From: Octopus vulgaris
Taxonomy: Eukaryota
NCBI GenBank assembly: GCA_951406725.2
Contig: OX597839.1
Coordinates: 6,820,001 to 6,884,000 of the forward strand
Length of the DNA: 64,000 bases
Direction: 5' to 3'
Shown piece after piece: positions 10,911 to 61,342 of this stretch. Position numbers and translations under genes: made by a program. The notes beneath the pieces are model-generated. The model had not been told where the DNA came from and searched no databases. It saw only the letters and a list, made by a program, of their open reading frames with translations. The first letter of the stretch is position 1. Each line of letters begins with the position of its first letter.

Positions 10911-11138
10911 CGGCGAGCTGGCAGAAACGTTAGCACGCCGGGCGAAACGCGTATGCGTATTTCGTCTGTCGTTACGTTGTGAGTTCAAATTCCGCCGAGG
11001 TCGACTTTGCCTTTCATCCTTTCGGGGTCGATAAATTAAGTACCAGTTACGCACTGGGGACGATGTAATCGACTTAATCCGTTTGTCTGTCTTTGTCCTC
11101 TCTGTGTTTAGCCCCTTGTGGGTAATAAAGAAATAGGT
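10911..11138 (+). mobile_element. tRNA-derived SINE family A
   Basis: ggcgagctggcagaa A-box-like head, gagttcaaattcc B-box, body gcctttcatcctttcggggtcgataaa; near-identical copies at 18391, 36659, 59615. Confidence 0.9.
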
Positions 11139-18320: not shown

Positions 18321-18386
18321 ATTCAAATTTATAGAATGCAAAAGACGAAGACAGGTGAGGGAACAGCAAGCAGGTATATTAGTTTG

Positions 18387-18801
18387 AGCTGGCGAGCTGG
18401 AAGACACGTTAGCGCACCGGGCGAAATGCTTGGCGGTATTTCGTCTGCCGCTACAATCTGAGTTCAAATTCCGCCGAGGTCGACTTTGCCTTTCATCCTT
18501 TCGGGGTCGATTAAATAAGTACCAGTTACGCACTGGGGTCGATGTAATCGACTTAATACCTATGTCTGTCCTTGTTTGTCCCCTCTAAGTTTAGCCCCTT
18601 GTGGGTAATAAAGAAATAGGTATTTCGTCTGCCGTTACGTTCTGAGTTCAAATTCCGCCGAGGTCGACTTTGCCTTTCATCCTTTCGGGGTCGATTAAAT
18701 AAGTACCAGTTACGCACTGGGGTCGATGTAATCGACTTAATACCTATGTCTGTCCTTGTTTGTCCCCTCTGTGTTTAGCCCCTTGTGGATAATAAAGAAA
18801 T
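18387..18801 (+). mobile_element. SINE family A with a 184-bp internal tandem repetition and 15-bp TSD
   Basis: TSD aggtatattagtttg at 18372-18386 and 18802-18816; body repeated from ggtatttcgtctgccg at 18435 and 18619. Confidence 0.92.
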
Positions 18802-18838
18802 AGGTATATTAGTTTGTGGCTCGAGAAGAATGGAAAAG

Positions 18839-18876
18839 TCTTTGACGTTACGGGTATAAGTTCTTCGACAGAAAGG
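18839..18876 (-). ncRNA. Decayed hammerhead-like motif, CUGUCGA core (family Y)
   Basis: Reverse complement ccttt CTGTCGA a gaacttataccc GTAA cgt c aaaga; the host repeat (aaaagacgaag.caggtg..ttagt) matches 61232-61342. Confidence 0.5.
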
Positions 18877-18966
18877 GATGAGAGGAAGAAATGGAGAGAC
18901 AACGAATTAAAAAAAACGGAGAGGGAAAGGTATACAGGGATTAACAGTCCAACATGATATATATGT

Positions 18967-29664: not shown

Positions 29665-30430
<766 letters not shown>

Positions 30431-36352: not shown

Positions 36353-36658
36353 TGTGTACGTGTAATGTTTCGTAGCATCGAATCCCTCGTGGATATTTGC
36401 ATTGCAGCCTTCGGCAAGGCTCTCATATATTCCGGCTACTAGGACAAGTTTTGGCCTGATACATGTATACATATGCATACAAGTATATGTGTGTGTGTTT
36501 GTACTGCGTTGTGTGTGTGTGTGCGTGTGTGTGTGTGTGTGTGCTGTGTTGTGTGTTTGCGTTTGTGTGTGCGAATGTCTGCGCGCGTGCAGAGTTTCGT
36601 GCATGTGTGTATATTTGCGTGTGTATGTATGTGTGTTTGTGTGTATATGTGTGTGTAA

Positions 36659-36891
36659 GGCGGCGAGCTGGCAGAACCGTTAGCACGCAGGGTGAAATGC
36701 GTAGCCGTATTTCGTCTACCATTACGTTCTGAGTTCAAATTCCGCCGAGGTCGACTTTGCCTTTCATCCATTCGGGGTCGATAAATGAAGTACCAGTTAC
36801 GCACTGGGGTCGATGTAATCGACTTAATTTGTTTGTCTGTCCTTGTTTGTCCTCCTCTTTGCGTTTAGCCCCTTGTGGGTAGTAAAGAAAT
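36659..36891 (+). mobile_element. SINE family A
   Basis: Near-identical to the 10911 copy. Confidence 0.9.
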
Positions 36892-37029
36892 ATGTATATG
36901 TGTGTGTGTGTGTGGTGTGTGTGTAATTTTAGTCGATTACACGCATCAGAACTCGGGATAAGCTCCGGCCTATCAAATTCTTTTGGCCTCAGACAGACTG
37001 TAACATTATATATAAATACACACACACAC

Positions 37030-45808: not shown

Positions 45809-47971
<2,163 letters not shown>

Positions 47972-59574: not shown

Positions 59575-59614
59575 GGTGGCGTTTTCATTACGGCGCCGAT
59601 ATAACCAAATGAAA

Positions 59615-59929
59615 GGCGGCGAGCTGGCAGAAGCGTTAGCACGCCGGGCGAAATGCTTAGCCGTATTTCGTCTGCCGCTATGTTCTGAGTTCAAATTCCG
59701 CCGAGGTCTACTTTGCCTTTCATCCTTTCGGGGTCGATAAATTAAGTACCAGTTACGCACTGGGGTCGATGTAATCGACTTAATCCGTTTGTCTCTCCTT
59801 GTTTGTCCCCTCTATGTTTAGCCCCTTGTGGGTAGTAAAGAAATAAGAAACGTTAGCACGCCGGACGAAATGCTTAGTGGTATTTCGTCTCCCGTTACAT
59901 TCTGAGTTCAAATTCCGCCGAGGTCGACT
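59615..59929 (+). mobile_element. SINE family A plus a partial tandem second unit
   Basis: Full unit 59615-59845, restart agaaacgttagcacgccgg at 59846, truncated at 59929. Confidence 0.9.
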
Positions 59930-60725
59930 ATAAGGGTAAAAAATTGAATATTAATTTGATTAATATCAATTTAAAACCAGTGTCCTAGCATACTGAAAAA
60001 TCTGAAGATACGGAAAAAATTAAATTATATACATATAAGATGGATGACCACTAAGTGGACATCCATTATGCTAGAAGTAGACCCCATATGGTCTGACCAC
60101 TAAGAAAATATCGTTTTCAAGAAAATTCAGCAAACGCCAGAACGTAAGCGAGCAAGACAAATGAAAAGATACAAAATATAAAGATTAATCACAAACCCGA
60201 TTTCATTGTTACCATTTACATAATACTTACGTAAATGTCCGCAATTCATCAGTGTGACCGTCATAGCAAAATATAATTTGCAGAACTATACACGAGACGT
60301 CCGCATGAGATTGGACATGCATATAGTTCTACCAATTCCATTTGGGGTTATATTTCAAAAGTTTCGTTTTGGCGCGCCAAAATACCGGAAATAATTCTGC
60401 AGAAAATAATTCTCTACAATGAATTTTGCCTGTTAGAGAACATGGTTATTTAAATTTTAATAATAAGGGTGAAAAAATTGAATATTAATTTGATTAAAAT
60501 CGATTTAAAACCAGTGGCTTAGCATATTGAAAAATCTGAAGATTCAGAAAAAATTATATTACGTACATATAAGAGGGATGACCCCTAAGTAGACATCCAA
60601 TATGCTAGAGGTAGAGAAACATATGGTCTGACCACTAGCGTTTTGGTGTTTGCAGAATTTTCGTGAGAACAATCTTTTCTTAGTGGTCAGACCATATGGG
60701 GTCTAGCATAACGGATGTCCACTTA
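59930..60725. mobile_element. Penelope-like pLTR arrangement: ~533-bp period direct repeat plus inverted stub
   Basis: 59930-60102 repeated at 60463-60637; 60675-60725 is an inverted copy of about 60050-60107; hammerhead inside. Confidence 0.75.
60188..60258 (-). ncRNA. Type I hammerhead ribozyme motif, intact canonical core, long stem II
   Basis: Reverse complement gtcaca CTGATGA attg..catttacgtaa gta ttatgtaaatg..caat GAAA tc g gg TT tgtgat; 6-bp stem I, GUU triplet. Confidence 0.8.
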
Positions 60726-60726
60726 A

Positions 60727-60791
<65 letters not shown>

Positions 60792-61304: not shown

Positions 61305-61342
61305 TCTTTTACGTTTCGAGCCTACGCTCTTCAACAGAAAGA
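61305..61342 (-). ncRNA. Minimal type I hammerhead motif, CUGUUGA core (family Y)
   Basis: Reverse complement tcttt CTGTTGA a gagc gtag gctc GAAA cg TA aaaga; perfect stems I and II, acgt palindrome, GUA triplet. Confidence 0.75.

Follow-up and report, generated by a model that had tools for sequence, protein, structure and literature searches.

Penelope-like elements (PLEs) leave a recognisable layout where they insert. According to the excerpted text of PMC8557442, their insertions are marked by 5' truncation, partial tandems, and, at the 5' end, a 5'-truncated copy in inverted orientation; they are biased toward (TA)n, and their target duplications are difficult to discern. The minimal hammerhead consensus for metazoan PLEs in the available part of PMC4209133 comprises CUGANGA-H followed by a G10.1-C11.1 pair, a helix I of 4-5 bp, and a helix II of 7-8 bp. 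The same part of that source presents single hammerheads in truncated PLEs as the common case in animals and describes them as inactive or weak as monomers. The Poseidon hammerhead is reported to cleave only with protein, and reverse transcription starts inside a stem-loop (PMC11167929, excerpt). In the Octopus vulgaris assembly, PLEs are given as 6.83%, in 190 families (PMC13282606, part of the supplement), with 336 recent insertions in 31 families (PMC13282606, excerpt). These figures bear on the present locus only if its host is an octopus; the SINE and microsatellite landscape looks octopus-like.

Retrozymes are another close system. They are described in an excerpt of PMC7229834 as tandem units with a hammerhead in each, which are cut into monomers and circularised. 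In the portion available of Li et al. 2026 (10.64898/2026.07.22.740005), an active retrozyme locus requires two consecutive hammerhead-bearing units. The units reported there range from 51 to 972 bp, solo monomers are frequent, an origin from PLE pLTRs is proposed, and cleavage was obtained in only one of nine tested dimers.

Within the window (the whole 64-kb stretch of DNA analysed), we found three related repeat pieces beside a microsatellite. Unit A (59930-60462, minus strand) is a 533-nt non-coding unit of 32% GC; its sense strand is the minus strand and its 3' end lies at 59930. Copy B (60463-60637, minus strand) is a 5'-truncated partial copy that matches the final 173 nt of unit A, which creates a pLTR-like partial tandem. 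Self-BLAST against the window aligned 59930-60102 with 60463-60637 at 155 of 175 identical positions (89%) and a period of 533, bearing out the original prediction of a ~533-bp unit followed by a ~175-bp direct repeat. Piece C (60639-60725, plus strand) is inverted, begins one base past copy B in a 5'-to-5' joint, and matches unit A between 60144 and 60052, with 79 of 93 columns identical (85%) by self-BLAST. The inverted stub that had been predicted is therefore present, and its length is 87 bp rather than ~50 bp. On the other side of piece C, AATATG leads into a (TA)n microsatellite (60732-60787), recognised by direct reading of the sequence, which is the likely insertion target. Along the minus (sense) strand, the order is (TA)n, inverted piece C, truncated copy B, full unit A, and SINE. 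The K2P distances from unit A were 0.112 for copy B and 0.099 for piece C, and self-BLAST detected no further copy of 59930-60725 elsewhere in the 64-kb window.

Several traits of PLE insertions recur in this layout: a 5'-truncated copy ahead of a longer one, a 5'-truncated copy that stands inverted at the 5' end, and an AT-rich or (TA)n target without a clear target-site duplication. Mobilisation by PLE machinery is supported because the partial tandem, the inverted 5' copy, and the (TA)n flank occur together with a hammerhead in the matching sense. The earlier suggestion that a partial tandem plus an inverted pLTR is the Penelope insertion signature agrees both with the excerpted description in PMC8557442 and with the arrangement seen here. 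We give an even chance to the reading that the locus is a PLE 3' end (pseudo-LTR / 3' UTR), inserted by that element's own enzymes. The locus is likely incapable of moving or circularising alone. As the original prediction had stated, it holds no substantial ORF: the longest ATG-started frame among the six frames of 59930-60740 encodes 45 aa, and no RT or GIY-YIG ORF lies within the locus. The missing RT / GIY-YIG sequence counts against a truncated PLE, as does the failure to find an autonomous partner. The helix geometry also departs from the PLE consensus, and both sides of the hammerhead are strongly folded, as in retrozyme RNAs. Some PLEs do have 3' ends that lack an ORF for more than 533 nt; in octopus Naiad PLEs such ends extend to ~900 nt by line count (PMC8557442 supplement).

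By analogy with the PLE literature, a GIY-YIG endonuclease would nick AT-rich DNA, and a telomerase-like RT would then start copying the element's RNA at the 3' end, which lies at 59930. Copying would have halted at 533 nt, ahead of any ORF. Template switches could account for the 175-nt copy B and 87-nt piece C, or both could stem from a previous insertion at that site. For the RNA to cleave, a partner hammerhead (in a dimer) or a bound protein would be necessary, as reported for PLE hammerheads. Measured downstream of the predicted cut in the sense direction, copy B starts at 92 nt and piece C spans 50-142 nt. Alignment combined with the predicted fold places the end of piece C in the loop of a hairpin of unit A, which offers a loose parallel only to the start of Poseidon reverse transcription in a stem-loop.

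The flanks are asymmetric, with (TA)n on the 5' side only and a SINE on the 3' side in the sense direction. The 3' end of unit A cuts into the 3' side of a host SINE-like partial unit (59846-59929, plus strand). This partial unit is 89% identical to 59629-59712 and breaks off where the intact unit continues with TTGCC, in agreement with the SINE truncation predicted on the left side. The remainder of the interrupted SINE was not found beyond the insertion, and the tested flanks had no 6-mer in common and showed no target-site duplication. The missing duplication and the missing 3' part of the SINE, which suggests a deletion, are consistent with a different account, in which a hammerhead-bearing repeat was moved by a LINE or was static and was later rearranged locally beside the unstable (TA)n. 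A further point in its favour is that piece C ends 122 nt before the 3' end of unit A, beyond the usual 30-40-bp PLE tail. We nevertheless consider this account improbable, as the exact order of the pieces, keyed to the sense of the hammerhead, is the PLE pattern, and the 3' end of unit A has no poly(A) or simple-repeat tail.

A descriptor scan, folding, and a shuffle test together identified a type I hammerhead motif at 60187-60259. This result upholds the predicted presence of a hammerhead and places it on the minus strand, the strand having been absent from the original prediction. Stem I pairs 60259-60253 with 60193-60187 over 7 bp (GGUCACA/UGUGAUU, with three G-U pairs, minus strand). The descriptor scan located the core elements CUGAUGA at 60252-60246 and GAAA at 60204-60201 on the same strand, and cleavage is predicted at a GUU site between 60194 and 60193. 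The type I features found are the CUGANGA core, GAA, A15.1-U16.1, H17, three helices, and an open stem I. The stem II region measures 41 nt, somewhat less than the ~45 nt anticipated, and is predicted to fold into 4 bp followed by an internal loop (4x4) and a hairpin of 11 bp. The helix III strand, A-U-C-G-G-G-U followed by U, is weak and near-palindromic and forms at most 2-3 bp. Thus, the description of the ribozyme as canonical holds for the core bases and fails for the A-U pair at 10.1-11.1, the U-G pair at 15.2-16.2, and the short helix III.

This motif was the sole match of the strict descriptor on both strands of the 64 kb. In dinucleotide shuffles of the 796-bp stretch, none of 2000 sequences contained the motif under either the loose or the strict descriptor. 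Every core base is present, stem I runs for 7 bp, the basal part of stem II is a perfect 4 bp, and these elements follow the correct order; the 96-nt stretch around the motif folds at z -2.61. Rfam returned no match at the gathering score, and none of its 22 matches at E<=10 belonged to a hammerhead family. The Rfam result would fit a chance motif in AT-rich repeat DNA, an explanation that the shuffles and the completeness of the motif make extremely improbable; the long stem II is perhaps the reason for the miss. From the predicted cut to the 3' end of unit A is a distance of 264 nt. The hammerhead is outside the repeated part, so the locus contains only one, and copies B and C are both without it. 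Unit A is 45% U on the 3' side of the hammerhead, a point in favour of a PLE 3' end. A Poseidon-type ORF start within the hammerhead was also considered; the overlapping 45-aa frame soon stops and was judged to be a chance occurrence.

We then compared the motif with hammerheads in the pseudo-LTRs of EN+ PLEs, as covered by excerpts of PMC4209133 and PMC8557442. The shared features are type I topology, a GUU site, a weak, near-palindromic helix III, placement near the 3' end in the sense orientation, a partial tandem with an inverted 5' copy, and (TA)n. In contrast to those hammerheads, the one found here has no attached ORF, no G10.1-C11.1 pair, and a 3' end 264 nt past the cut; helix I is 7 bp long, and the 41-nt stem II region contains an internal loop. 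It departs from the metazoan PLE minimal consensus in the A-U pair at 10.1-11.1, the 7 bp of helix I, and the 4 bp of basal helix II. Many Hydra-clade PLE hammerheads in File S2 of PMC8557442 have a short near-palindromic helix III and a GUU site, and most of them lack G10.1-C11.1. The same file contains PLE-X1_sMoe and PLE-X1_sTam, whose long stem II of ~50 nt was marked by its authors as deviating from canonical. Both share with our locus a PLE-linked type I hammerhead with a long stem II region; they are endonuclease-less, rDNA-targeting elements of a plant (Selaginella), and the likeness noted is structural. Given these File S2 examples, the GUU site and a long stem II both have precedents among PLEs.

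Known octopus elements did not appear to include a member of this family. The hammerhead of Hydra-1_Obim differs in sequence from the one described here. The Naiad 'HHR_half_core' lead was dropped, as the 3' ends of Naiad_Ovul and Naiad_Obim looked unlike the unit by eye and motif searches gave zero hits. Judged by eye or by motif search, Hydra-1_Obim, Naiad_Obim, and Naiad_Ovul probably belong to other families. Seven short motifs (six from the element and one from a neighbouring family) likewise gave zero hits in the supplement of PMC8557442, in which line breaks can hide matches. The hammerhead pattern used on metagenomes was too loose: among the 120 loci listed, of an estimated ~350, there was no homologue, and the best BLAST hit (E 4e-4) was to an AT-rich 42-mer. 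Inspected by eye, nine loose stem-I matches among those listed showed neither a helix III resembling that of a hammerhead nor an extended stem II. Five loci in prokaryote genomes, each a mere 18-20-nt match, were rejected as chance, and two patterns found nothing in viral contigs.

The features shared with metazoan non-LTR retrozymes, as presented in excerpts of PMC7229834 and 10.64898/2026.07.22.740005, are a non-coding, AT-rich, folded unit and a type I hammerhead. The differences are that our locus has 1.33 units, one hammerhead, 11% divergence between copies, a predicted locked core, and an inverted 5' piece. It is a distinct possibility, falling short of an even chance, that the unit represents a retrozyme family that is non-autonomous, mobilised by PLEs, and built on 533 nt; this locus would then be a 1.33-unit insertion. 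Arrays elsewhere would be transcribed, cut from hammerhead to hammerhead, circularised, and reverse-transcribed by a PLE RT. Like retrozymes, the unit is non-coding, below 50% GC, and self-paired. With 7 bp in helix I and 4 bp in basal helix II, the hammerhead comes nearer to the canonical retrozyme type, and PLE pLTR derivatives, often solo monomers, have a precedent in the excerpt of 10.64898/2026.07.22.740005. The length of 533 nt lies inside the 51-972 bp reported there but is above the ~170-400 nt that the available part of PMC7229834 gives for retrozymes of invertebrates. The locus carries a single hammerhead in place of the at least two tandem hammerhead units of retrozymes. Furthermore, one recent pass round one circle should yield identical copies, whereas the copies here are 11% apart.

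As one hammerhead is present where two are required, no release of an RNA circle is predicted from this locus alone, and its designation as an 'active' unit is unsupported as stated. The same applies to the proposed '~530-nt monomer'. The 533-bp period is no proof of a monomer, because the downstream copy of a PLE may itself be 5'-truncated, and ORF-less ends of ~900 nt exist. Both main readings have in common mobilisation by PLEs and a locus that is unable to release a monomer alone.

Structure prediction provided further evidence on the state of the ribozyme. The core bases CUGAU are predicted to pair with AUCGG of the helix III strand, forming a lock. The predicted energies were -22.9 kcal/mol for the locked form, -15.5 kcal/mol with an open core, and -11.3 kcal/mol with helix III formed, so that forming helix III costs +4.2 kcal/mol. 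In the fold of the 533 nt, the five core bases CUGAU were paired at a probability of 0.98-1.0, and stems I and II at 0.69-0.99. A self-duplex of the hammerhead through the near-palindrome of helix III was predicted at only -2.1 kcal/mol. The monomer would thus be off, according to these predictions, through its weak helix III and locked core. The locked core argues against a retrozyme, since the hammerhead is predicted to be free in most metazoan retrozyme circles according to the excerpt of PMC7229834.

The unit as a whole was strongly folded in the models. Linear unit A reached -137.1 kcal/mol (z -4.92) and circular unit A -132.5 kcal/mol (z -5.5), and none of 100 shuffles was as low in either case. 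The strong folding of the non-coding unit as a circle favours a retrozyme, but the fold is branched (66% paired, compared with 60% in shuffles), and circular unit A folds no better than the linear form. The plus strand of unit A also folded well (z -4.26). In 100-nt windows, z fell to -2.7 upstream and -4.4 downstream of the hammerhead. A rotation test ranked the natural junction 23rd of 60, which gave no discrimination. Counts of pair-breaking differences (10 broken and 2 kept in the fold of unit A; 7 and 1 in that of copy B) were not decisive, nor was a two-sequence consensus fold.

The three pieces differ in preservation. The last 173 nt of unit A folded at z -4.28, compared with z -1.84 for copy B. 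In the 52 columns common to all three pieces, unit A had no private change, whereas copy B and piece C had some; with about five polarisable events, this comparison is too small for significance. Among the three, unit A is preserved best and for that reason may be close to a working family sequence, which lends the original prediction some credit. Its lack of private changes favours a retrozyme family. B and C are each 10-11% different from full unit A, which, on sequence grounds, argues that the three were not recently copied from one template. Their divergence could reflect an aged insertion, template switching among different RNAs, or the arrival of unit A beside an older copy.

Related sequence was present in 14 DNA-type or unlabelled public runs from 8 studies with 4 organism labels, which is also in line with a retrozyme family. 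These runs contained 0.24-0.33 of 76 words taken from the sequence, corresponding to ~3.5-4.5% uniform divergence, or to 2.2-3.2% if only unit A matches. Such word shares could fit a dispersed family and an orthologous locus alike. No RNA run was listed with the sequence, and six runs guessed to be RNA had small word shares, which are evidence neither way.

PLE-terminal hammerheads have already been described, and so have retrozymes derived from PLEs. The locus is an ordinary example, and a single fragment adds little, since both kinds are known. We found no cephalopod retrozyme in print, although paper supplements may list some. Our search for cephalopod or mollusc hammerheads and retrozymes retrieved only the PLE and retrozyme papers cited here, and a search for 'long stem II' with retrotransposon returned nothing. 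The locus would matter more if it derived from a circle-forming retrozyme of 533 nt. In the part of Li et al. 2026 (10.64898/2026.07.22.740005) available, the link between PLEs and retrozymes has so far consisted of co-occurrence and pLTR homology, and the inverted 5' copy would then be a direct structural sign of PLE enzymes moving retrozymes. A 533-nt retrozyme family, probably of cephalopods, with a long hairpin in place of loop 2, a self-locked core, and the inverted-copy mark of PLEs seems unlikely to us. It is equally doubtful that, in such a family, the core lock would act as an off-switch as in viroids and plant retrozymes, unlike in other animal retrozymes. Hammerheads with a long stem II are probably under-counted, because they escape both Rfam and the descriptor in the excerpt of PMC8557442, which allows a spacer of 7-17 nt.

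Another family of PLE-type minimal hammerhead-like motifs, unrelated to the one above, occurs in the window in three copies 80-84% alike, which start at 61340, 18874, and 7768 on the minus strand. In the copy at 61340, stem I has 5 bp, A9 is followed by an extra base, a G10.1-C11.1 pair is present, stem II has 4 bp, and there is an ACGU palindrome with a GUA site; this copy sits inside a ~200-bp stretch with (TA)n on both sides. All three read CUG-Y-Y-GA; because of the pyrimidine at core position 6, they may represent a variant or dead core. The fold of this motif was weak alone (z -1.37).

SINE-like copies at 59614-59929, 10911-11135, 18391-18802, and 36658-36892 are 83-93% alike and twice form partial tandems; no tRNA gene was called in these repeats and they had no Rfam match. 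Within 18328-18880, one tandem SINE (period 184) is nested in a copy of the second PLE-like family and has an apparent ~15-bp target-site duplication at its flanks. Broken LINE-like protein fragments occur at 29926-30340 and 47077-47400. The former presumably resembles the restriction-like endonuclease at the C-terminal end of a non-LTR element, with a broken frame, and a 43-aa piece of it had no match in Pfam. The fragment at 47077-47400 has two ENA homologues at 73-75% identity, one of which carries PF13966 (zf-RVT).
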